The notes beneath the pieces were generated by a model. It was given only the letters and a program-made list of their open reading frames with translations, searched no databases and was not told the DNA's origin. From positions 1-46,975 of the forward strand of contig JBKKDD010000090.1 in the NCBI GenBank assembly GCA_046708705.1: DNA of 46,975 bases, given 5' to 3'. Below, piece after piece: positions 20,927-44,868 of this stretch. Both the position numbers and the translations under genes were made by a program. Numbering within the stretch: the stretch's first letter is position 1; each line of letters opens with the position of its first letter. The stretch is from Miltoncostaeaceae bacterium (GTDB taxonomy: Bacteria; Actinomycetota; Thermoleophilia; Miltoncostaeales; Miltoncostaeaceae).

Positions 20927-21064
20927 GTCCGCTGGAGACCCACACCAAAACCGACATAAGTCTGTTTTGCGTGCGCAGACGGCGGCGGAGCGACCTCGCC
21001 TCGGTTTTCCGTACACGGTCTGTAGTAGCCTCGCGATGTGGCGCTTGTCGCCACGATATGCCAA

Positions 21065-21156
21065 CCGCTGGGGGTGCCGTACATCGGCTGAGAGCCCCGC
21101 CCGTGACCGGGGCGACCCCAGAACCTGATCTCGGTAATGCGAGCGGAGGGAAGCGG
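21065..21156 (+). promoter_or_regulatory. TPP (THI-box) riboswitch
   Basis: CUGGGGGUGCC...GGCUGAGAG...ACCCCAGAACCUGAUCUCGGUAAUGCGAGCGGAGGGAAGCGG matches the THI element. P1 pairs CCGCU (21065..21069) with AGCGG (21152..21156). The SD GGAGGGA lies in the 3' part of the aptamer, just before ATG 21158. Confidence 0.85.
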
Positions 21157-21157
21157 A

Positions 21158-21457
21158 ATGATCGTCGAGATCCAAGTGTTGCCGACCCCGGCAGGAAACG
21201 ACACCGATCACTGGGCGCACGTCGACGCCGCGATCGGCGTCGTCGCGCAGAGCGGTCTGATGTATGAGGTCGGCCCGCTCGGCACGACCTTTGAAGGCGA
21301 TGCCGATCTGGTGTGGGACACCGTCCGACGCGCCCACGAGGCTGCGCTCGCGCACGGCGTCGCACAGGTCGTCACCGTGGTCAAACTCCTGGAGTCGCAC
21401 GACGGGAGCCCGACCATGGACGCGCTCACCGCCGCCCACCGTCCGACCGCCGATTGA
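21158..21457 (+). CDS. MTH1187/YkoF-family thiamine(-precursor)-binding protein
   Basis: MIVEIQVLPTP...HVDAAIGVVAQSGLMYEVGPLGTTFEGD is typical of DUF77/YkoF. Immediately downstream of the TPP riboswitch. The earlier ATG 21137 lies inside the aptamer. Confidence 0.75.
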   Translation: MIVEIQVLPTPAGNDTDHWAHVDAAIGVVAQSGLMYEVGPLGTTFEGDADLVWDTVRRAHEAALAHGVAQVVTVVKLLESHDGSPTMDALTAAHRPTAD

Positions 21458-21462
21458 GCACG

Positions 21463-22245
21463 ATGACCGCCGCTCGCTCCCTCCTGGTCCGCGCGCTCCC
21501 GCCACTTGCGCTCCTCGCCGCGCTCATTGGGGTCTGGGAGGTCTGGGTGCGTCTCGCAGACATCGACCCGGCGGTGCTCGCGCCGCCGAGTCGCGTCGCC
21601 GGCGCGCTCGTCGACACCGCCGACATTCTCGCCGGACACGCGGGGACGACCCTGGCCGAGACCGCCATCGGCCTTCTCATCGGAACGTTCGTCGGTCTCG
21701 GCGCCGCGGTGCTCGTCGCGCTGTGGCCGATCGCGCGACGTGCCGTGGAGCCGCTTTTGGTCGTCCTCCAGACGATTCCACCCGTCGTGCTTGCACCCAT
21801 CCTCGTCTTGGCATTGGGCTTCGGATGGGCGCCGCGAATCGTCGTCGTCGTTCTGATCGTGTTCTTCCCGGTTGCCATCGCCGCATCCGGAGCGTTTTTG
21901 ACGGTCGACCGAGATCGGGTCGACCTTGTCTGCGCGTTCGGCGGGACCCGCTCCGACGTGCTTCGCCATGTGACGCTCCCCGCGGCGCTTCCCGCCGTGT
22001 TCGACGGGATCCGTATCAGCGCCGCCTACGCGGTCGCGGGCGCCGCGATCGCCGAGCAGATCGGTGGCGCCAGGTCGGGACTCGGCCTGTACATCGTGCG
22101 CTCCCAGCGGAGCTTTCGCACCGATCAGGTCATCGCAGGCGTCGTCGTCATCGCCGTGCTGTCCCTCGCCGTCTATGCCCTGGTCACCGTCGTCGCCCGA
22201 CACGCGACGCCGTGGCTCGTCCACACGACAAGGAAGGCCTCATGA
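21463..22245 (+). CDS. ABC transporter permease (NitT/TauT family, ThiX-like)
   Basis: MTAARSLLVRALPPLALLAALIGVWEVW, six-TM profile, in the riboswitch-controlled operon. Confidence 0.8.
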   Translation: MTAARSLLVRALPPLALLAALIGVWEVWVRLADIDPAVLAPPSRVAGALVDTADILAGHAGTTLAETAIGLLIGTFVGLGAAVLVALWPIARRAVEPLLVVLQTIPPVVLAPILVLALGFGWAPRIVVVVLIVFFPVAIAASGAFLTVDRDRVDLVCAFGGTRSDVLRHVTLPAALPAVFDGIRISAAYAVAGAAIAEQIGGARSGLGLYIVRSQRSFRTDQVIAGVVVIAVLSLAVYALVTVVARHATPWLVHTTRKAS

Positions 22246-23264
22246 AATCCCACCGTGCACGCGCTCGTCTGATCATTGCGACCCTCGTAGCACTCACGGG
22301 CGTAGGCATCGGTGCAATCGGATGCGGCGGTGACGACACCGGGACATTCGCGGCCCAGAAAGTCACAGTAGTCCTGGACTGGACCCCCAACACCAACCAC
22401 GCCGGCGTCTACCTTGCGCGCGCGCAAGGAATGTACGAGCGTGCCGGTCTCGACGTCGAGATTATCGAGCCGGGTCAGGACGGGAGCATCGCGCCGGTGA
22501 TGGCAGGCAGGGCGCAGATCGCGTTCTCCTACGCCGAGCAGGTTCTGCCGCTTCGTGCGCAAGGCACGCCGGTCGTCTCACTCGCGACCGTTCTGCGTAC
22601 GAACACGTCATCGCTGATGTCTCCCACCGATCGGCGCATCACCCGCCCGCGCGATCTCGCGGGCATGACCTACGGCACCTTCGGCGGACCGATCGAGGAA
22701 CCCCTGATCAAGGCGCTCGTCGCCTGCGACGGCGGCGATCCCGACCGCGTCAGGTTCGTCGAGGTGGGGAACGCCGACTACAACATCGGGTTTCGCAAGC
22801 GCGCCTACGACGCAGTATGGGTCTTCGACGGGTGGGATGTCATCCGGCTGCGCGAGCTCGCAAAAACGCCTGTCACCACGATCCCGTTCCGCGACCACCT
22901 GGACTGCATCCCCGACTGGTACACCCCGGTGATCACAACTAGCGAGGCCGTTCTGCGCGACCAGCCGCAACTCGTGCGCACGTTCCTCGCCGCGACCGCC
23001 GAGGGCTACCGCATGGCCGCGATCGACCCGCAAGCGGCCGCCGAGGCGCTCATCGCCGGTGCACCCGAATCCGACCGTGCGCTCGTCGAGCGTTCCGCAC
23101 GGTTCCTGGTCCCGTTCTACGCGACCGCTCCGGGCGCCTGGGGACGTCAGGATCCTGCCGTGTGGCGCAGGTTCGATGCTTTCCTTCGCACGGCGAAGAT
23201 CATCACCTCCCCCTCCCCCGTCGACGACGCGTTCACGAACGCATACCTGCCGCCGACGCAGTGA
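22242..23264 (+). CDS. ABC transporter substrate-binding lipoprotein (NMT1/THI5-like, ThiY-like)
   Basis: MKSHRARARLIIATLVALTGVGIGAIGCGGDD lipobox. LDWTPNTNHAGVYLA motif is typical of NMT1/ThiY-type binding proteins. ATGA overlap with the permease stop. Confidence 0.75.
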   Translation: MKSHRARARLIIATLVALTGVGIGAIGCGGDDTGTFAAQKVTVVLDWTPNTNHAGVYLARAQGMYERAGLDVEIIEPGQDGSIAPVMAGRAQIAFSYAEQVLPLRAQGTPVVSLATVLRTNTSSLMSPTDRRITRPRDLAGMTYGTFGGPIEEPLIKALVACDGGDPDRVRFVEVGNADYNIGFRKRAYDAVWVFDGWDVIRLRELAKTPVTTIPFRDHLDCIPDWYTPVITTSEAVLRDQPQLVRTFLAATAEGYRMAAIDPQAAAEALIAGAPESDRALVERSARFLVPFYATAPGAWGRQDPAVWRRFDAFLRTAKIITSPSPVDDAFTNAYLPPTQ

Positions 23265-24004
23265 CCGGCAGAGTTGCCGTGGCGAATCTGTGCCACGACT
23301 ACGGCGCCCTGCCGGTCCTCCGCGGCATCCGGTTCATGACCGACCCGGGCACGTTCACCGTGATCGTGGGCCCCACCGGGTGCGGCAAGTCGACGATCCT
23401 GCGCGTGCTCGCCGGCCTCGTCGTCCCGACATCGGGCACCGTCACCGTCGACGCACGTTCCGTGATCGGATCCCCGGGATCATGTGTCTACATGCCCCAA
23501 GGCGACACGTTGCTCCCCTGGCGCCGTGCCCGCGACAACGCGCTCCTCGGTGCCCGCATCGCAGGGCACGACATGACACGGGTCCACGAACGTGCAAATG
23601 AGTTGTTCACACGGTTCGGGTTGGCTGGGTTCGAGGACGCCTGGCCGTCGCAGCTGTCCGGGGGAATGCGCCAGCGTGTCGCCCTGCTGCGCACGGTCCT
23701 GGCCGCGCACCCGGTGGTGCTCTTGGACGAGCCATTCGCCGCGCTCGACGCGATCACTCGCGCCGACCTGCAAGGGTGGTTGTCCGATCTACTGGACGCC
23801 GCACCGCGCACCACCGTCCTGGTCACTCATGACATCGACGAGGCACTTCGGCTCGCCGACGAGATCATCGTCATGTCCGCCCGGCCCGGACGGATCATCG
23901 CCCACATCGGCGTGGATGTCCCACGCCCGCGTCCCGCGTTACAGATCACCAACCCGTATTTCACATCGATGAAACGTCGAATTCTGGGGTCCCTCGGGCA
24001 GTGA
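23261..24004 (+). CDS. ABC transporter ATP-binding protein (NitT/TauT family, ThiZ-like)
   Basis: GTG 23261 overlaps the previous stop. Walker A GPTGCGKST, signature LSGGMRQRVAL, Walker B VLLDEPF. Confidence 0.85.
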   Translation: MTGRVAVANLCHDYGALPVLRGIRFMTDPGTFTVIVGPTGCGKSTILRVLAGLVVPTSGTVTVDARSVIGSPGSCVYMPQGDTLLPWRRARDNALLGARIAGHDMTRVHERANELFTRFGLAGFEDAWPSQLSGGMRQRVALLRTVLAAHPVVLLDEPFAALDAITRADLQGWLSDLLDAAPRTTVLVTHDIDEALRLADEIIVMSARPGRIIAHIGVDVPRPRPALQITNPYFTSMKRRILGSLGQ

Positions 24005-36875: not shown

Positions 36876-37178
36876 GTGAAGGACGTCGAGCCCATCTATG
36901 ACCAGGCAACTGACACCCTCAAGGCGATCCGAAAGGGTCACCCATCAGCGTCGGCTGTGACCAACACGAAGGGTGTCACAGTGTTCTTTGACCCCGACAC
37001 GAACGAGGTCCTGGGGTACCAGATCCCGAACTTCACCGCCTACTACGAGGCGAACAAACTGCCCGACGGAAGCTATGACGTCGACCTTCCCACCCGGGTT
37101 CCTGTGAACCTCGAGGAGGAGATGGACTTCGACGAGGAGCAGCTTCGCTCGGGCGTCCGCATTGCCGAGTTCTACTAG
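36876..37178 (+). CDS. Small DUF2283-like protein with an acidic C-terminal half (paralog 1)
   Basis: GTG start with RBS GAAGGAG. IYDQATDTL...VFFDPDTNEVLGYQIPNF...YDVDLP. Paralogous to 39370..39654. Confidence 0.6.
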   Translation: MKDVEPIYDQATDTLKAIRKGHPSASAVTNTKGVTVFFDPDTNEVLGYQIPNFTAYYEANKLPDGSYDVDLPTRVPVNLEEEMDFDEEQLRSGVRIAEFY

Positions 37179-37521: not shown

Positions 37522-39231
37522 CTATCCCTTGTGCCCGACGATGATGGAATCCGGGCCCTTGCCCTGCGGGACCATCGGAAATACCTTCGCCATCTGGTCG
37601 GTGTGCACGTCGACGAGCGCGGGCCCATCATGGGCGAGCGCCTCGGCGAGTGCATCTTCGAGCTCGCCCTCATCGGTGATCGTCGTTCCGGGCATGCCAT
37701 ACGCGCGTGCAATCGCGGCGAAGTCGGGCTGGAACGCCTCGTAGCTCGTTCCCGCGTAGCGACCCTCCCAGAAGAGCTCCTGCCACTGGCGAACCATTCC
37801 CAGGTAGCCGTTGTTGAGAATGATGACCTTCACCGGCAGGTCGTACATCATCGCCGTGGAGAGCTCCTGCAGGGTCATCTCGAACGACCCGTCGCCGGCG
37901 ATGTCGATGACGAGCTCGTTCGGCAAGGCGACCTGCGCCCCAAGCGCCGCGGGGAGGCCGAAGCCCATGGTGCCCAGGCCACCCGAAGTGACCCATCGGC
38001 GCGGCTGGTCGAACAGGTAGTGCTGGGCGGCGAACATCTGGTGCTGGCCGACATCCGTCGCGACGATCGCTTGTCCGCGCGTGAGCTTGTAGAGCGACTG
38101 CACGACGCGTTGTGGAGGGATCGCGCCGTCGGTGTCGGTGTCGATCTCGTAGGGGAACTCACGCTTCCAGGTCTCCACGCGCTCACGCCACGTCGCGCGC
38201 TGCACCGGGTCGTGGCGCTCGGCGAGCTCGGCGTAGGCATCGGCGATCGCCCCGAGGGTCGCCTTTGCCTGACCGGCGATACCGATGTGGGCCGAGCGGT
38301 TTTTGGAGATCTCTGCCGGGTCCACGTCGATGTGGATGATCTTGGCGCCGGGTGCCCACTCGTTCATGACCGTCGAGAGCACACGCTCGTCGAAACGCAC
38401 CCCGACGGCCAGGATCAGATCCGACTCTTGGAATGCCCAGGTCGCGGCGGCGATGCCGTGCATCCCCGGCATTCCGATCCACAGCGGGTTCGACGCCGGA
38501 AAACCGCCGAGTCCCATCAACGTAGTCGTGACGGGCACCTCCGCCGTGCGCGCCAGGCGCGTCAGCTCGTCGTCGGCGCCGCTGATGATCACCCCACCGC
38601 CTGCGTAGATCACCGGCCGTTTGGCCTGGGCAAGCGCACGTGTCGCCGCAGCGATCTGCCGCGGGTGCCCCGCGGAGGTCGGAGGGTTGTAGCCGGGGAT
38701 GAGCGGGGGGTGCGGACCGGTGTAGTCGTCGACGTCCTTGGCCCACACGTCCACGCAGACGTCCACCAGCACCGGTCCGGGACGGCCGCTCTCGGCGATA
38801 TGCACGGCCTCGGCGATGATCTGGGGGAGCTCGTCCGCCTCTTTGATCAGGTAGCTGTGTTTGACAACCGGGAGGGTGATGCCGACGATGTCGGCCTCCT
38901 GGAAGGCATCGGTCCCCACGCGGCTCGACCCGACCTGGCCGGTCAACGCGATCATGGGCACCGAGTCCATGTAGGCGTCGGTGATCGGGGTCACGAGGTT
39001 AGTGGCCCCGGGTCCCGACGTCGCGGTGCACACGGCCGCCCGACCGGTCACCTTCGCATAGCCCTGTGCGGCGTGGCCTGCCCCTTGCTCGTGGCGCGTC
39101 AGGTATGTGCGGATCGTCGGGTCGTCGTGGAGCGCGTCGAACAATGGGATCACCGGGCCGCCCGGGATGCCGAACACCGCGTCGATCCCCGCGCGTTTGA
39201 GTCCCTCCAATGTTGCATCCACGGCGCGCAT
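37522..39231 (-). CDS. ilvB: Acetolactate synthase large (catalytic) subunit, TPP-dependent
   Basis: GIPGGPVIPLFDAL, TSGPGATNLVTPI, GTDAFQEADIVGITLPVVKHS, GLGTMGFGLPAALGA, IILNNGYLGMVRQWQ. 569 aa. No small-subunit gene adjacent. Confidence 0.85.
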   Translation of the reverse strand: MRAVDATLEGLKRAGIDAVFGIPGGPVIPLFDALHDDPTIRTYLTRHEQGAGHAAQGYAKVTGRAAVCTATSGPGATNLVTPITDAYMDSVPMIALTGQVGSSRVGTDAFQEADIVGITLPVVKHSYLIKEADELPQIIAEAVHIAESGRPGPVLVDVCVDVWAKDVDDYTGPHPPLIPGYNPPTSAGHPRQIAAATRALAQAKRPVIYAGGGVIISGADDELTRLARTAEVPVTTTLMGLGGFPASNPLWIGMPGMHGIAAATWAFQESDLILAVGVRFDERVLSTVMNEWAPGAKIIHIDVDPAEISKNRSAHIGIAGQAKATLGAIADAYAELAERHDPVQRATWRERVETWKREFPYEIDTDTDGAIPPQRVVQSLYKLTRGQAIVATDVGQHQMFAAQHYLFDQPRRWVTSGGLGTMGFGLPAALGAQVALPNELVIDIAGDGSFEMTLQELSTAMMYDLPVKVIILNNGYLGMVRQWQELFWEGRYAGTSYEAFQPDFAAIARAYGMPGTTITDEGELEDALAEALAHDGPALVDVHTDQMAKVFPMVPQGKGPDSIIVGHKG

Positions 39232-39369
39232 CCGGCATTCCTCTCGTTCGTCGCGATACTCTCGAAGTCCCTGCGTTTCCCCGTGAGAGTAACAACACCT
39301 GCCGGAGGAGCCATCGTGGCCACATCACCCCCCCCGCCCGACCGCCCATCGTTCGCCGAGGAGAACGCC

Positions 39370-39654
39370 ATGCGGGTGGCGAGTGAGTCGCTCAACTACT
39401 ACGACCAGCACAGCGACACCTACCACTGCTCGTATGGACCCCCCTCCCCCGCGCTGACGATCCGAGACCCGGAGCGAGAGCTTCTCGTGCGTGTCGATCC
39501 GCAATCGGGACAGGTCCTTGGTTTCACGATCCCGGAATTCAAGGGCTGGCATGCCCGCCACGCCGACGAGGATGGCGGCTTCGAGGTGGACCTGCCGCCG
39601 GTGTGGCCGCTCCAACCCGGCTCCGAGGAGTCGACCGATCTGGACGACGAGTAG
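39370..39654 (+). CDS. Small DUF2283-like protein with an acidic C-terminus (paralog 2)
   Basis: C-terminal part of ORF 37531..39654. ATG 39370 with GAGGAG RBS (alternative GTG 39316 with GGAGGAG). YYDQHSDTY...[18 protein letters not shown]...FEVDLP parallels 36876..37178. Confidence 0.6.
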
Positions 39655-39694
39655 ACTTTCGCACGGTACGACAGCATCCGACAAGGGAGCCTGC

Positions 39695-40507
39695 ATGGGG
39701 GTCGAGACCCAACGCGTCGAGGATTTCAAGCTCGCGAAAGAGCCGTACTACCTCGCCCTCGGAAACGAGGTCGAGCTGTACGAGGCGGCTTACAGCGCCG
39801 GGTTGCCGGTCATGCTCAAGGGTCCGACGGGTTGTGGCAAGACGCGCTTCGTCGAGCACATGAGCTGGCGACTGGAGCGGACGCTCATCACCGTCGCATG
39901 CCATGAGGACCTCACCGCCTCGGATCTCGTCGGCAAGTACACCCTGCGCGGCGACGAGACAGTGTGGCAGGACGGACCGCTGACCATCGCCGTGAAATCC
40001 GGCGGGATCGCCTACCTCGACGAGATCGTCGAGGCGCGCAAGGACACCACCGTCGTCATCCACCCCCTCACGGACGACAGGCGCATCCTGCCGCTCGAGA
40101 AGAAGGGCGAGATCGTCGCGGCACCGCCGGAGTTTCACTTGGTGATCAGTTACAACCCCGGCTATCAGTCGGTGCTGAAGGACTTGAAGCACTCCACCAA
40201 GCAACGGTTCGTCGCCATCGACTTCGACTACCCGCCGCCGGATCTCGAGGAGGAGATCCTGCGCAACGAAGCGGACGTCGACGCGGACGTTGCCAGCAAG
40301 CTCGTCAAGATCGCCGAGAAGGTCCGCAACCTCCGCACCCACGGCCTCGAGGAGGGCGTCTCGACGCGACTTCTGGTCTACGCCGGACAGCTCATCGGGA
40401 AAGGCATCGAGCCGGTCGCCGCCTGCGAGGCGACGATCTGCAAGCCGATCACGGACGATCTCGACATGCAGCGATCGATCGTCGAGATCGTCGCGACCCA
40501 GTTCTGA
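39695..40507 (+). CDS. CbbQ/NirQ/NorQ/GvpN-type MoxR AAA+ ATPase
   Basis: ATG 39695 with [29 protein letters not shown] (Walker A), [10 protein letters not shown] (Walker B), [16 protein letters not shown]. ~270 aa, as for CbbQ/NorQ. Confidence 0.85.
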
Positions 40508-40574
40508 GGCGAGGTCGTGCCGTGACGAAAGCGCCCCCCAGGTGACATTCGGACCGGCCGTCGGCAACGTCGGG

Positions 40575-41627
40575 ATGTACGTCGCGCGCGAGATGCTCGC
40601 CGCCGTCCCCGAGGATCAGCGCGCGACATACTTGTCGCTCGTCGAGCAGATCTCCGAGCTCAAGTACCAGCTGGGCGTGGAGGTCGCGCGGCAACTCCCG
40701 CGGCTCTTGTCGGCGCATGACACCGCACAGGTCGCGGCATATCTCGACCAGGTGAAATCGGTCGCCGCGGTCGGCTGGAAGAGCGGCGTCGAGGTCGCCA
40801 AGCAGCTTCCCGACCTCTACGACGCCCCCGACCCGGCGCTCGCCGGCTCATACGTCGCGATCGTGACGGGCGCGACCGCCGGACCCGAGGAGGACACCGA
40901 AACCGTCGACCTCGCAGCCGAACTCGATCGGCTCGAGCAAGAGCTTCGTGAGATGGAGCCGAAGGTCCAGCGGGCGCAGGAGCTGAAATCGCTCCTGTCG
41001 GCGCGTGACCGCCGTGACGAGAAACGGCGGAAGCACGCGGTCGAGCTCGCATCGGTTCTGCCGCCGATCTTGGCCAGGCTCCGGCCGCGTCACCGCGCGA
41101 CGTTCCTGGAGCAGGTGGATCGCGTCGCCTCGGCCGACCCGGAATCGGCCTTGGAGGCCGCCGACACGCTCCTGGACCTCTTGAACGGCGAGCGTGTCAG
41201 CGCCGAGGGCGCGACGGAGTGGGTCACCCGCGGACTGGACGTGCTCGATCGCAACAAGGAAGTGGGTCGGGGCTACTTCCGGCTGGGCTCCAAGCACGCC
41301 CTCGAGGTGCTCGAGGAGCTCCGTGAAGGACTTGCGCTCAAACAAGTTGCGCGGGTGCTCAAGCTTTATGCCACCGCGCTCAGCGGTCGCGACGTCGCGA
41401 TCCGCTCTACCCAAGAGATGTATGCGATCGAGGCCTTCGGCGCCGACCACGTGGTCCTGCCTCCCGACATGCGGTTCTTCGAAGACGACGACGCCAACTT
41501 TCGCGCCTACAAGGTCGCGACGGCCCATGGTGCCGGGCGCATCGAGTTCGGCACGTATGATTTTCGCCTGGACGATTTGGGCGCGGTCGTGGAGCGCTTG
41601 ACCACAAGATATGGAGGAACGGCGTGA
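40575..41627 (+). CDS. Helical-repeat protein resembling the N-terminal region of CbbO/NorD
   Basis: Four ~32-40-aa repeats of the form (G)VE(V/L)AxxLPxLL...YLxxVxxVA and a C-terminal FRAYKVATAHGAGRIEFG motif. Alternative start GTG 40542. The stop overlaps the next start (GTGA). Confidence 0.6.
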   Translation: MYVAREMLAAVPEDQRATYLSLVEQISELKYQLGVEVARQLPRLLSAHDTAQVAAYLDQVKSVAAVGWKSGVEVAKQLPDLYDAPDPALAGSYVAIVTGATAGPEEDTETVDLAAELDRLEQELREMEPKVQRAQELKSLLSARDRRDEKRRKHAVELASVLPPILARLRPRHRATFLEQVDRVASADPESALEAADTLLDLLNGERVSAEGATEWVTRGLDVLDRNKEVGRGYFRLGSKHALEVLEELREGLALKQVARVLKLYATALSGRDVAIRSTQEMYAIEAFGADHVVLPPDMRFFEDDDANFRAYKVATAHGAGRIEFGTYDFRLDDLGAVVERLTTRYGGTA

Positions 41628-43408
41628 GTACGAATGCGTCCGAGGCGGTAAGTGATCTCGGTCGGTTCTACGCCTTGTTTCCCCAACAGGATCTCGCGCG
41701 AGATCTGTTCAACATCGTGGAGGGCCACCGCGTCGATGCACGGCTTCGCGTCGCCTACCCGGGCATCCGGCGGGACATGCTCGCGGTCGCGACCGCGACG
41801 GTCGAGCGCCGCGAGGGGCTGAGCCCCGGCGCGAGCGAGGCCCAAGCGGTCGTCGAGGCCATGCTCACTCACACCCTGGTCGGCGACGTCGACCTGTCGC
41901 CGTTGCCCGAGGCGATCTCGGCGATGGTGACCGACGCCCTGACCCTGATGGACAGGGTGCTCGACCACGATGCGACGGTCGCCGACAGCGCGCGTGTAGC
42001 CGCGGCGTTGTACGAGCTCATCGACGACGGCGCACGGCAAGCGCCGCGAAACCCGTTCGTCTCCGATGCTGATCCGGGCGCCGCCGCCGAGCCCGACGCG
42101 GGTGACGAGGGCGCAGACGCCGATACCGCGGACCCCGCCCGACCGGGTGACGGCATCGATGAGTACTCCTCCGCGGACATGCCGCCGTTCATGACGCCGG
42201 TACTGGAGGAGCTCGTCAAGCAGCGTGCCCAAGCGCAGGGCGAGGGCGAGGACACCCCGGACGCTCCCGACCAGGCTCCTGAGGCCGACCAGGCCATGCA
42301 GACCCAGCAGGCGCAAGCTGGTGGCGAGCGTGGCGAGGACGAGATGGCGCAGCGGGCCGACACCAACACCGAGCAGGCGCCGGCGTCACCCGGCGAGGCG
42401 CCCGATGGCCAGGCGGACGACCTCGAGGGAACCGGCGCGGACATGGATCTTGCGCCCGGCGCAGACGTGCCGATGGTCGAACCCGAAGACGACGCAGAGG
42501 AGGATCTGGGGGAGCAGACCTTCTACTACGACGAGTGGGACCACAAGATCGAGGATTACCGGCCGGCGTGGTGCACGTTGCGCGAATCACGTGCCACCCG
42601 GGTCCATGAGGCGTTCGTGGCGGCAACGTTCTACGAGCACGGTGGTGTGGTCAGCCAGATCCGCCGCAACTTCCAGCTCATGCGCCCGGAGCGGCTTCGG
42701 AAGATGCGCTACCAGCCGGACGGCGACGACCTCGACATCGAGGGAATCGTGGAGTACGTCGTCGATCGCAAGACCCGCATCAGCCCGACCGAGCGGGTGT
42801 ACATCAAGCGCGACAAAAAGGATCGTGACGTCGCCACAGCGTTTCTGGTCGACATGTCGAGTTCGACCGACCGCAAGATCGACGGGCGCAAGCGCATCAT
42901 CGACATCGAGAAGGAGTCGCTGCTGCTCATGTCCGAGGCGCTGGAGGCGATCCGTGACGAGTACGCGATCTATGGCTTCTCCGGCTCGGGGCGAGAAGAC
43001 TGCCAGTTCTACACCATCAAAGAGTTCGGTGAGCGCTACGACGATCGGGTCAAGGGACGCATCGGTGGTATCTACGGACGTCAAAAGACGCGCATGGGCC
43101 CTGCCTTGCGCCACGCGACGAAGCGTCTCATGGCCGTTGACGCGCACGTCAAGCTGCTGATCCTCTTGACCGACGGCAAGCCCTATGACTCAGACACCTA
43201 CCAGGACAACACGTACGCACAGGAGGACACGAAGATGGCGTTGCGCGAGGCGCGGCGCGAGAAGATCCATCTCTTCTGCGTGACCGTGGATCAAGAGGGC
43301 GCCGACTACCTCCCTCACATGTACAGCGACGCGAACTTTGTCGTCGTCGACGACGTCCGGACACTCCCTCAGAAGCTTCCCCAGCTCTACCGGCGCCTGA
43401 CGACCTAA
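41624..43408 (+). CDS. CbbO/NorD-type von Willebrand factor A (vWA) protein
   Basis: C-terminal vWA domain with MIDAS LVDMSSST...LLTDGKPYD. FYYDEWDHKIEDY motif. Long acidic linker. Follows a CbbQ-type ATPase. Confidence 0.8.
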   Translation: MSTNASEAVSDLGRFYALFPQQDLARDLFNIVEGHRVDARLRVAYPGIRRDMLAVATATVERREGLSPGASEAQAVVEAMLTHTLVGDVDLSPLPEAISAMVTDALTLMDRVLDHDATVADSARVAAALYELIDDGARQAPRNPFVSDADPGAAAEPDAGDEGADADTADPARPGDGIDEYSSADMPPFMTPVLEELVKQRAQAQGEGEDTPDAPDQAPEADQAMQTQQAQAGGERGEDEMAQRADTNTEQAPASPGEAPDGQADDLEGTGADMDLAPGADVPMVEPEDDAEEDLGEQTFYYDEWDHKIEDYRPAWCTLRESRATRVHEAFVAATFYEHGGVVSQIRRNFQLMRPERLRKMRYQPDGDDLDIEGIVEYVVDRKTRISPTERVYIKRDKKDRDVATAFLVDMSSSTDRKIDGRKRIIDIEKESLLLMSEALEAIRDEYAIYGFSGSGREDCQFYTIKEFGERYDDRVKGRIGGIYGRQKTRMGPALRHATKRLMAVDAHVKLLILLTDGKPYDSDTYQDNTYAQEDTKMALREARREKIHLFCVTVDQEGADYLPHMYSDANFVVVDDVRTLPQKLPQLYRRLTT

Positions 43409-43414: not shown

Positions 43415-43418
43415 GCCA

Positions 43419-43691
43419 GGGTAAGCCGCTCGCGGCAAAGCACCGTGATCAGGGTACGCCGCTCGCGCCCGCGCACTCGCCCACATCGCGACCCTGGTTC
43501 TCGACTCGCGGACCGGGGTAAGGGACTCGCACTTGCTTGTGGCTCACGGGGGTATGCGACTCGCGCATGGCTACGGAACCGGGGTATGCGACTCGCGACA
43601 CTCGCTCGTCGTCCCCGTGTGACCGGGGTATGCGACTCGCGGCGGCACGGGGGTATTCGACTCGCGCCCACCGGGGTACCAGGCTCGCGGC
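43419..43691 (+). repeat. Iteron array (8 good copies plus 1 degenerate) of a ~17-18-bp repeat, consensus GGGGTAWGCGACTCGCG
   Basis: GGGTA cores at 43419, 43452, (43495 degenerate), 43516, 43550, 43582, 43626, 43651 and 43674. Spacings are 33, 43, 21, 34, 32, 44, 25 and 23 bp, close to multiples of 11. The first and last copies are each followed by CAAAGCNCNGTGATC. Confidence 0.85.
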
Positions 43692-43733
43692 AAAGCCCTG
43701 TGATCCTTCTCGCAGAAACGGGTCTCGAGCGTC

Positions 43734-43777
43734 GTTAAGTATCAGTTGTTAAGGGAAAAGCCAGTTTCATATCATTC
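43734..43777. other. AT-rich segment (candidate DNA-unwinding element of the origin)
   Basis: GTTAAGTATCAGTTGTTAAGGGAAAAGCCAGTTTCATATCATTCA is about one-third GC against a ~68-70% GC background. It contains GTTAAG twice and lies between the iteron array and rep. Confidence 0.55.
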
Positions 43778-43778
43778 A

Positions 43779-43829
43779 GGGGTGCGCTCTCGCCCCTTCC
43801 CCTTCGGGGTCGGGCGCACCCCATTTTTT
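43779..43829 (+). terminator. Long GC hairpin plus T-tract (intrinsic-terminator-like) inside the origin region
   Basis: GGGGTGCGC...(inner CCCCttccccttcGGGG)...GCGCACCCC followed by ATTTTTT. Confidence 0.55.
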
Positions 43830-43846
43830 CCTGCGAGTCAGCTACC

Positions 43847-43864
43847 CGGGGTAAGTAACTCGCA
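43847..43864 (+). repeat. Isolated iteron copy just upstream of rep (candidate autoregulatory operator)
   Basis: GGGGTAAGTAACTCGCAG matches the iteron consensus, 18 nt before ATG 43882. Confidence 0.6.
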
Positions 43865-43881
43865 GTCTCGAACCACGACAC

Positions 43882-44868
43882 ATGCGCTCAGGCATGCTTC
43901 GAGCCAAGATGCCTCTTCGTCCACTCACCGTCGCGACCACCGACGAATCAGGGCTCACGGGGATCCAAGAGCAGCTCGCGCTCGTGGAGCCCGACAACCT
44001 GCGACGGCTGGAGCAGCCGTTACGGTGGGGTTTCGCGGATCGCTCGACTGCCCGGAAGGGACTCGAGATCGCCGCCGGGTTCGCGATCGCGGATCGACTG
44101 GGCGCGATCCGCCAGACGCAAGGCCCGGCAATTGGCCGCCATGGATACATGCTGATCGTGTGGCTCGGTTCCAGGTGGTTACAGCTCGAGCAACACGGCG
44201 CCACAGCGGTGCCGTTCAGCCAGTACCGGCTTTTGCACGACTTTGGGTGGGGGAATGCCGGGAAGCCTGCTCGCCAGGCACTCAAGCGTACCCTGTTGGG
44301 ACTCCAGGAAGCGCGGTGGGAAGGCGAGGTCAACGATGCCTTGACCGGTCGCAAGACGCATGAAGATCACTTTGGCATCATCGACCGGGTACTCTGGCCG
44401 ATCGCACCGAACGGCAGGACCGAGCGGCCCGGCTATATTTTCCTCGGCAGCTGGTTTTTGGAGCAGCTTCGCAACGAAGCCGGGGAGTGGCTCGATTGGG
44501 CGATCGTACGCGACCTTCCCCCGATTGCCCGGAAGTTCTATGGGTTGCTCGAAAACGACCGGTTCGTTTCGCGCGACAGCACGCATGAGTGGCAGGCCTA
44601 CACGCTGGGCGCGCCGCTGTTTGCAACACTGGGGTCGAGCTGTACCAGAGAACGCGACAACGTCGCCGCGGTGTTGCGCGCCTGCGAGGCGATCTGTGCA
44701 CTCGATCCGCGCTACAGGTTCACGCGTGAGCGAACACTCGACGCCCGAAACGGCTGGGTCAACCAGGTTGTCGTGAGCCGAACGGCGCGACGGCGCGTCG
44801 GTCCGCGCTCGTCGGGGCATCGTCCCCCGGGACTTTCTGCTCAGGTGAGCTCCGTAGCCAACGAGTGA
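43882..44868 (+). CDS. Putative plasmid replication initiator (RepA, 'replication initiator protein A'-like)
   Basis: Sits next to the iterons and AT-rich segment. The segment HGYMLIVWLGSRW...VPFSQYRLLHDFGW...GKPARQALKRTLLGLQEARWEG resembles the RPA-family pattern (by eye only). Exact start is uncertain. Confidence 0.55.
   Translation: MRSGMLRAKMPLRPLTVATTDESGLTGIQEQLALVEPDNLRRLEQPLRWGFADRSTARKGLEIAAGFAIADRLGAIRQTQGPAIGRHGYMLIVWLGSRWLQLEQHGATAVPFSQYRLLHDFGWGNAGKPARQALKRTLLGLQEARWEGEVNDALTGRKTHEDHFGIIDRVLWPIAPNGRTERPGYIFLGSWFLEQLRNEAGEWLDWAIVRDLPPIARKFYGLLENDRFVSRDSTHEWQAYTLGAPLFATLGSSCTRERDNVAAVLRACEAICALDPRYRFTRERTLDARNGWVNQVVVSRTARRRVGPRSSGHRPPGLSAQVSSVANE

Follow-up and report, generated by a model that had tools for sequence, protein, structure and literature searches.

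To our knowledge, CbbQO and NorQD are the only members of their family of paired AAA+ ATPases and von Willebrand factor A (vWA) proteins whose clients are known. CbbQO engages RuBisCO through its MIDAS (an adhesion site that depends on a metal ion), and the existence of Q/O-like pairs outside RuBisCO clusters has been acknowledged (PMC5437159). For NorQD, which acts on nitric oxide reductase (NOR), cryo-electron microscopy has placed a finger of the vWA domain in the AAA+ pore and docked the adaptor N-domain on the ring, with ATP-driven twisting that stretches the linker joining the two points at which the client is gripped (PMC13036017, PMC9976466). Here we describe a module of this type on a 46,975-nt contig of a Miltoncostaeaceae bacterium (JBKKDD010000090.1, assembly GCA_046708705.1; hereafter the window, meaning this whole stretch), where an ATPase gene (Q) and its adaptor genes lie beside a gene for an enzyme of the acetolactate synthase (ALS) large-subunit type. 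An earlier note on this DNA had described an orphan pair of ATPase and vWA genes. Our surveys show instead that the module and the ALS-like gene form an invariant five-gene block. From the sequences, we propose, with confidence that we would call even, that the four genes of the module (small2, Q, O-N and O-C) encode a CbbQO/NorQD-type AAA+/vWA machine whose partner is a divergently transcribed enzyme resembling acetohydroxyacid synthase (AHAS) and using thiamine diphosphate (ThDP), FAD and Mg.

The linkage was followed in both directions. A forward survey, which scanned one genome per GTDB species, yielded 44 loci with Q at 81-95% identity, all from Miltoncostaeales or Thermoleophilia wherever the taxonomy label was informative, and a separate tier of Q at 68-71% identity in Acidobacteriota. 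The order small2-Q-O-N-O-C was intact in 44/44 loci wherever DNA exists, with the ALS gene head-to-head with small2, and 111-215 nt separate the ALS start codon from the motif conserved in small2 at all 45 loci with sequence, a count that includes the window and a plasmid of Miltoncostaea oceani (see below). The flanks vary, with at least five arrangements on the left and at least six on the right, and the block occurs on both plasmids and chromosomes: it is found on RepA/ParA plasmids, beside the nuo operon on contigs of 1.3 and 2.8 Mb (CAVSFF010000009 and CAVZAI010000002), beside gcvP and in several other settings, some of which carry inverted arrangements of a CoA-ligase cluster. At one locus (L031), the block has cydABDC to one side and an aquaporin gene to the other, and CoA-pathway genes are absent for 10 kb in both directions. 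The reverse survey, in which metagenome contigs were searched with the ALS, returned 80 relatives. The eight at 70-78% identity carried small2, Q, O-N and O-C if their contigs extend past the ALS in that direction, and those whose contigs end there show small1 (a second small gene, on the far side of the ALS) or small2 only. The module was present in 0/72 relatives at ≤53% identity, and a canonical ACT-type ilvN lay directly downstream of the ALS in each of the 17 checked at this level. The two-way co-occurrence of the module with a distinct, ilvN-less ALS clade is invariant, and the description of the module as an orphan is therefore misleading.

The absence of the classical clients (RuBisCO, cytochrome c-dependent NOR (cNOR) and the gas vesicle) from the replicon, on which the idea of an orphan was built, is itself confirmed. 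Gene for gene, the order in the window is that of unnamed2, a 46.6-kb circular plasmid of Miltoncostaea oceani SCSIO 61214 (NZ_CP064358.1, Thermoleophilia), and no RuBisCO, NOR or gvp genes were found on that plasmid or in the window, extra open reading frames (ORFs) of the latter included. The gene-neighbourhood survey that had been suggested as a check gave the same picture, as no RuBisCO was seen among the recognised or clustered neighbours within 10 kb at the 44 related loci, no NOR or other such client among their recognised neighbours over that distance, and neither a cytochrome c gene nor one for NorB in the window or at the related loci. The Miltoncostaea publications consulted were silent on RuBisCO and NOR.

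The region running from the start of small2 to the end of O-C holds four co-oriented genes, not three. Judged by its sequence, Q is a true CbbQ/NorQ-family AAA+ protein, with the Pfam domains AAA_5 (PF07728, E 1e-33) and CbbQ_C (PF08406, E 6e-31) and intact Walker A (GPTGCGKT, aa 43-50) and Walker B (YLDEIVEA, aa 107-114) motifs, so that the ATPase of ~270 aa read from the letters in the earlier note stands. Its best alignments in the PDB are with CsoCbbQ (5c3c, 400 bits), AfCbbQ2 (340 bits) and NorQ (321 bits). The domain core, the Walker motifs and a downstream vWA/MIDAS partner together place it in the CbbQ/GvpN/NorQ (CGN) subfamily, and the GvpN equivalog model TIGR02640 is not passed (83 bits against a cutoff of 266.8). 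Assignment to the Q/O (Q/D) remodeller pairs was hence correct, in view of these Pfam matches, PDB alignments and motifs. Within the family, Q is 69-71% identical to the Acidobacteriota sister clade, 59-65% to RuBisCO-linked CbbQ (65% to CsoCbbQ of Halothiobacillus neapolitanus), 61% to an amidase-linked Q and 53% to NorQ, the lowest value among the references. It does not fall with NorQD, considering the last figure and a vWA protein nearer to the Acidobacteriota adaptor (46%) than to NorD (39-41%). The phylogeny that had been called for is answered in part: in a small neighbour-joining tree without support values, Q groups with its Miltoncostaeales orthologues and the Acidobacteriota orphans, outside the RuBisCO- and NOR-linked clades and apart from the Halothiobacillus, Nitrobacter and Acidithiobacillus CbbQ, the amidase-linked Q and NorQ.

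Other relatives of Q were met along the way. CbbQ-family genes at 68-71% identity (L007-L011) are accompanied by a YfbK-type vWA protein in Acidobacteriota or lack a vWA gene, in which case they adjoin ribosomal protein genes, and orphan CbbQ-like ATPases are common in metagenomes. The Q/adaptor pairs of the Acidobacteriota sister clade (L005, L057-L092) have fabG-like, galU-like, serS and sppA genes and an mnmA-like tRNA-modification gene upstream; downstream, the opposite strand carries hydantoinase B/A-like genes and one for a Gfo/Idh/MocA oxidoreductase. A client was sought among these neighbours and none emerged, the pattern being one of family-wide housekeeping synteny only.

The adaptor is divided over two genes. 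The earlier note was right to pair Q with a vWA gene, and wrong to take the adaptor as one gene, having overlooked the 361-aa O-N gene that lies between the two. The vWA/MIDAS character of the second polypeptide, O-C, is well founded: it matches Pfam VWA (E 3e-9), its residues 264-592 align with NorD (9qhd_G, 166 bits), the motifs DMSSST, KTRMG, TDGKP and FYYDEWD are all present, and the MIDAS is intact (DMSSS at aa 410-414, T489, D517). Identity of its vWA part falls from 46% with the fused adaptor of Acidobacteriota to 39-41% with NorD, 34% with the CbbO of Nitrobacter and 29% with the amidase-linked adaptor. Ahead of it, aa 19-52 (FPQQDLARDLF...YPGIRRD) supply the rest of the N-domain, followed by an acidic linker at about aa 140-299 (nt 42041-42520), whose 160 residues, with 44 Asp and Glu to 6 Lys and Arg, are probably disordered.

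The first polypeptide, O-N, stops just past a conserved NFRxYKVxxAHxAGxIEFGTY motif and has no Pfam match and no sequence match in the PDB. Its AlphaFold2 (AF2) model (mean confidence score, pLDDT, 88.7) consists of all-helical repeats, for which Foldseek recovered only designed helical repeats and no NorD N-domain, so that its assignment comes from sequence collinearity. O-N and O-C are collinear with the single 1040-1090-aa proteins that follow the 69-71%-identical CbbQ in Acidobacteriota: in the 1088-aa protein of locus L005, residues 367-496 match O-N aa 220-339, residues 568-603 match O-C aa 17-52, and residues 777-1088 match O-C aa 296-594 at 46% identity. Residues 177-279 of O-N (counted from the Met codon at 40575) also align with aa 120-220 of the carboxysomal CbbO of Nitrobacter (E 2e-7), and the alignment with the N-domain of the amidase-linked adaptor is weak and significant too. 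A filter-free search of 1.84 billion representatives found the C-terminal half of O-N inside many proteins of 750-1200 aa, in which the motif at its end (NFRxYKVxxAHxAGxLEFGTY) is followed some 40 residues on by the opening motif of O-C (FP...L...E..R...Y.G). By these alignments, O-N is the N-terminal part of a CbbO/NorD-type adaptor. The O-N stop codon overlaps the O-C start as RTGA in 36 of 43 related loci, and the split is no sequencing error. The reading frames indicate that the adaptor is made as two translationally coupled ORFs and that the split is conserved, real and old.

Stand-alone helical proteins of ~360 aa, 30-64% identical to a distant O-N homologue and without a Q or vWA gene, are encoded elsewhere (L179, 3681-4763; L180, 5074-7248), and there may be a wider family that includes the helical module at the N-terminus of O-N. 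Among such O-N-like genes, one stands beside peptidase M29 and iron-containing alcohol dehydrogenase genes, and two lie in tandem after succinate-dehydrogenase-like genes. Four candidates for more distant split homologues, sought as a test of the ALS link beyond Miltoncostaeales, were set aside: P0391 and P0485 are helical proteins standing on their own in unrelated settings, with neither a Q nor a vWA gene, P0242 comes from a frameshift-ridden long-read copy of the same plasmid family, and the contig of P0250, considered as an independent split lineage, ends just upstream of Q and is uninformative.

The enzyme beside the module has all three Pfam TPP_enzyme domains and passes TIGR00118 (746 bits, cutoff 538), and its best PDB matches are the plant, yeast and Escherichia coli AHAS. 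The earlier description of a stand-alone ALS large subunit adjoining the module without its regulatory small subunit thus agrees with the TIGR00118 result and with the fact that ilvN never flanks the ALS of the block. The clade is sharply bounded, with at least 70% identity within it and at most 53% to any other ALS found. Its members carry clade-specific changes, among them (Arabidopsis thaliana numbering) P255C, K256V, L349P, N358T and D376E, which hit positions 80-100% conserved in 73 other ALS sequences and sit in or near the substrate and herbicide channel. At positions 256 and 376, all 43 block ALS have Val and Glu, where the 73 others have Lys (88%) and Asp (100%). W574, the catalytic, ThDP-activating Glu and the Mg-ThDP motif GDG...NN are kept. 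This pattern suggests that the ALS-like enzyme is probably a specialised carboligase rather than a housekeeping AHAS. Residue 282 of the window's enzyme is the Glu equivalent to A. thaliana D376, fixed in all 43 clade sequences; in weeds, D376E is known as a substitution that confers herbicide resistance.

The remaining constant member of the block, small2, was found upstream of Q in 44/44 genome loci. A small co-oriented gene 40 nt ahead of the ATPase had been reported before, and is indeed there; its DUF2283-like label is not supported, and its start is probably not at ATG 39370. Hmmscan against Pfam returned nothing for small2 even at E≤10, Foldseek found no match to its AF2 model in the PDB below E 0.4, and the DUF2283 identity was dropped. 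The start most likely lies at GTG 39316, giving 112 aa, since a GGAGGA Shine-Dalgarno sequence precedes this codon, the conserved motif PSFAEENA is encoded upstream of ATG 39370, and the Met encoded there is Leu, Ile, Val or Ala in several orthologues. The protein is built from an N-terminal helix with the motif (I/V)ASESL, a five-strand core and an acidic tail, and the AF2 model (pLDDT 76) shows a helix, five strands, a second helix and the tail as disordered. Its family is tiny, with ~200 clusters, all of similar size, in a word-index search of 5.8 billion proteins that can miss distant relatives; the homologues listed have no Pfam domain, and the few that are named come from metagenome-assembled genomes of Thermoleophilia, Acidimicrobiia or Actinomycetota. 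The small1 protein is 34% identical to small2 (E 4e-13) and has only a sub-threshold DUF7288 match (E 0.079), with no DUF2283 match at E≤10. It is an accessory part that one subclade lacks, present in 27/44 loci and absent from L038, L043-L046, L049-L054 and L031.

Table 1. Features of the block in the window.
Feature	Position	Strand	Description
small1	36876..37178	+	100 aa; small2 paralogue, converging on the ALS gene at its 3' end
AHAS-like ThDP/FAD enzyme, ALS large-subunit type	37522..39231	-	569 aa; proposed client
ALS/small2 divergent intergenic region	39232..39315	.	presumed shared promoter region
small2	39316..39654	+	112 aa; first gene of the Q/O operon
Q, CbbQ/NorQ-family MoxR AAA+ ATPase	39695..40507	+	270 aa; AAA_5 and CbbQ_C
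O-N, first polypeptide of the split CbbO/NorD-type adaptor	40542..41627	+	361 aa; all-helical
O-C, second adaptor polypeptide	41624..43408	+	594 aa; Pfam VWA, MIDAS

The intergenic region between the ALS gene and small2 contains no match to the sigma-70 consensus, and the idea of a shared operator within it was dropped, as no motif is common to all subgroups.

How such a module might act can be pictured from NorQD and CbbQO. Since all the needed elements are present (Q, the MIDAS, the acidic linker and the two-chain N-domain), a Q6·O-N·O-C machine working on the ALS is proposed. By analogy with both systems, Q would assemble as a hexamer, and O-N and O-C would jointly rebuild one adaptor, whose MIDAS, together with the N-domain or the linker, would hold the client at two points. 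ATP hydrolysis would then twist the two grip points apart and open the client, which we take to be the ALS-like enzyme. Opening could release a dead-end or damaged ThDP intermediate, making the machine an activase or reactivase as for RuBisCO; alternatively, it could load the ALS cofactors, as a maturase does in Fe insertion into cNOR. In this scheme, small2 may serve as a specificity adaptor in the place normally held by the ilvN regulatory subunit. Physical contact between the machine and the ALS, the sense in which it acts (as an activase or as a maturase) and the part played by small2 are what we infer here. The most specific form of the proposal is put forward tentatively, with rather less than even confidence: that this would be the first AAA+/vWA activase for a ThDP enzyme, in which the split adaptor and small2 replace IlvN and Q6 expels adducts or loads Mg-ThDP/FAD. 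The guess that the module could serve a new client is upheld by the gene context and sequences, and the test on the ALS that the earlier note suggested becomes the key lead.

Several points weigh against the ALS as client. All linkage evidence comes from one order, Miltoncostaeales, so that the linkage could be partly inherited synteny, and no second independent lineage with a split adaptor beside an ALS was found, the candidate contigs being too short. In the Acidobacteriota sister clade (37 loci, Q with a long fused O), neither an ALS nor small2 is found nearby, which means that the Q/O clade did not have its link to the ALS from the start. In most loci, a cluster of CoA-ligase, hyp2, thiolase-like and DUF35 genes is found close to the block, and the true client could be among their products. 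We found no paper that links ALS or AHAS with MoxR, CbbQ or vWA proteins. We also know of no AHAS that needs an activase.

The CoA-ligase cluster leads to the alternative that fares best, although we consider it unlikely. Here, the client would be another enzyme or complex of the co-travelling pathway, or a larger assembly that includes the ALS, with the ALS itself a mere pathway neighbour. The candidates are an AMP-dependent CoA ligase, a 330-aa protein without a Pfam match and two thiolase-like/DUF35 pairs. The whole region is part of a conserved metabolic plasmid, and in most loci no more than 10 kb separate the block from the CoA-ligase/hyp2/KAS-like/OB-fold cluster, which occurs in two orientations. 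However, the position and orientation of this cluster vary, while the ALS always keeps its head-to-head arrangement and narrow spacing with small2, the block at L031 has no such cluster within 10 kb, and in the reverse survey it is the ALS clade in particular that goes with the module.

It is quite unlikely that the module serves a client whose genes lie at some other place in the host (RuBisCO, cNOR, a haem-copper oxidase or the like) and owes its place beside the ALS to syntenic inertia within one order. This reading would fit the 65% identity of Q to carboxysomal CbbQ and that of the vWA part to NorD (39-41%), and Q and Q/O genes that look like orphans are often met (L005, L007-L011, the loci of Acidobacteriota). 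Against this, the block keeps its ALS through all the changes of flank, on plasmid and chromosome alike, ALS clade and module were found together whichever way the survey was run, Q and O appear to lie outside the RuBisCO-linked and NOR-linked groups, and no such client was seen within 10 kb in any of the 44 loci. Least likely, and in our view very improbable, is a role outside metabolism, with the MoxR-vWA pair serving in conflict, defence or plasmid maintenance: MoxR-vWA pairs do occur in conflict systems and the module of the window lies directly beside the probable iteron/RepA origin region, but PADLOC gives only P-loop-level matches for Q and none for the remaining four proteins, the block occurs on chromosomes as well, beside nuo and gcvP genes, and it holds no nuclease, protease or other effector gene and is strictly linked to one enzyme clade.

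The replicon itself deserves a brief description. Besides the block, the window and the M. oceani plasmid share F420 biosynthesis genes (cofCDEGH), a TRAP transporter, RepA, and CoA ligase, thiolase-like/DUF35, dehydrogenase and acetoacetate-decarboxylase-family genes (the last as two paralogues). The same genes recur on many metagenomic contigs of 43-53 kb, which points to a widespread, conserved metabolic plasmid family whose genes are chromosomal in some lineages. Between the end of the vWA gene and a RepA-like gene (43882-44868), about ten imperfect direct repeats of CCGGGGTATGCGACTCGCG, 19-22 nt long and spaced 25-44 nt apart, occupy positions 43416-43870 and are probably plasmid iterons or an origin. 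A TPP riboswitch (Rfam RF00059, 71 bits) at 21060-21168 on the forward strand lies upstream of an NMT1/THI5-like binding-protein/permease gene (21264-23264) and an ABC ATPase gene (23162-24004), a cassette that looks like one for uptake of thiamine or of its hydroxymethylpyrimidine (HMP) precursor. It belongs to a 3.2-kb insert missing from the M. oceani plasmid and is thematically suggestive, because the proposed Q/O client is a ThDP enzyme.

For the rules by which adaptors choose their clients, the locus supplies a third, genetically well-defined client candidate, which is soluble and easily assayed and has a host in culture (M. oceani SCSIO 61214). Because the adaptor is split by nature, the presumed specificity piece stands apart from the linker and vWA domain, and this offers a natural experiment for the twisting model with its two leverage points. 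If the ALS is indeed the client, some AHAS-type enzymes would need ATP-driven upkeep, which bears on the inactivation of ThDP enzymes and on carboligase engineering, and the RuBisCO-activase principle would extend to a second major class of carbon-carbon bond-forming enzymes.

Set beside the described systems, the module shares with the CbbQO activases (Acidithiobacillus ferrooxidans Q1O1 and Q2O2, and the CsoCbbQ/CbbO of Halothiobacillus and Nitrobacter) an AAA_5 plus CbbQ_C ATPase of ~270 aa at 59-65% identity, an adaptor with a helical N-domain, a linker and a C-terminal vWA/MIDAS domain, the order of Q ahead of O and, likely by analogy, the Q6O1 assembly and the logic of an activase for a soluble enzyme. 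It differs in having no RuBisCO in the replicon or within 10 kb at the 44 loci, where the Nitrobacter reference shows the expected context, in an adaptor of 361 + 594 aa (955 in total) in place of a single one of ~760-790 aa (786 aa in Nitrobacter CbbO), in a vWA part only 34% identical to Nitrobacter CbbO, in the extra small gene, and in a Q that the small tree puts in a different clade. With NorQD of Paracoccus denitrificans (PDB 9qh4-9qhg), it shares a vWA part that aligns with the NorD chains 9qhd_G and 9qh6_G and is 39-41% identical to NorD of annotated norCBQD operons (Aquabacterium olei, Azospirillum brasilense), all MIDAS residues, and the N-domain motif FP...L...E..R...YPG, and the twisting finger-in-pore mechanism of NorQD is the best structural template. 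Unlike NorQD, it has a Q only 53% identical to NorQ, no norCB, a proposed client that is soluble and not a membrane protein, and a split adaptor with an N-terminal extension of ~220 aa. The candidate client, for its part, resembles the biosynthetic IlvB/IlvN AHAS in passing TIGR00118 and in keeping the ThDP-activating Glu, GDG...NN and W574, and departs from it in lacking ilvN, in forming a separate clade at ≤53% identity, in its changes at K256, D376, L349 and N358, and in its pairing with small2-Q-O.

The closest relatives of both proteins are the Q and fused adaptor of Acidobacteriota (Pyrinomonadaceae/Blastocatellia), at 69-71% identity for Q and 43-47% for the vWA part. This uncharacterised system has the same long adaptor architecture, collinear with O-N and then O-C, but as a single polypeptide of 1040-1090 aa, with no small2 and no nearby ALS. 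A further parallel is found on the Rhizobium etli plasmid pRsp8C3a (L096, 6341-10502), where an aliphatic amidase gene (amiE) is followed by a CbbQ-family ATPase gene, a gene for a 736-aa vWA protein and then acs; amiE-Q-O also occurs on a Pseudomonas plasmid (PMC13209695). There, as in the window, a CbbQ-family ATPase and a NorD-like vWA protein stand beside a soluble enzyme that is neither RuBisCO nor NOR, although the client candidate is another one, the adaptor is a single chain of 736 aa, and identity is 29% for the vWA part and 61% for Q. Uncharacterised as it is, the amidase arrangement would, from its gene context, be a precedent for the switching of Q/O machines to other soluble enzymes.

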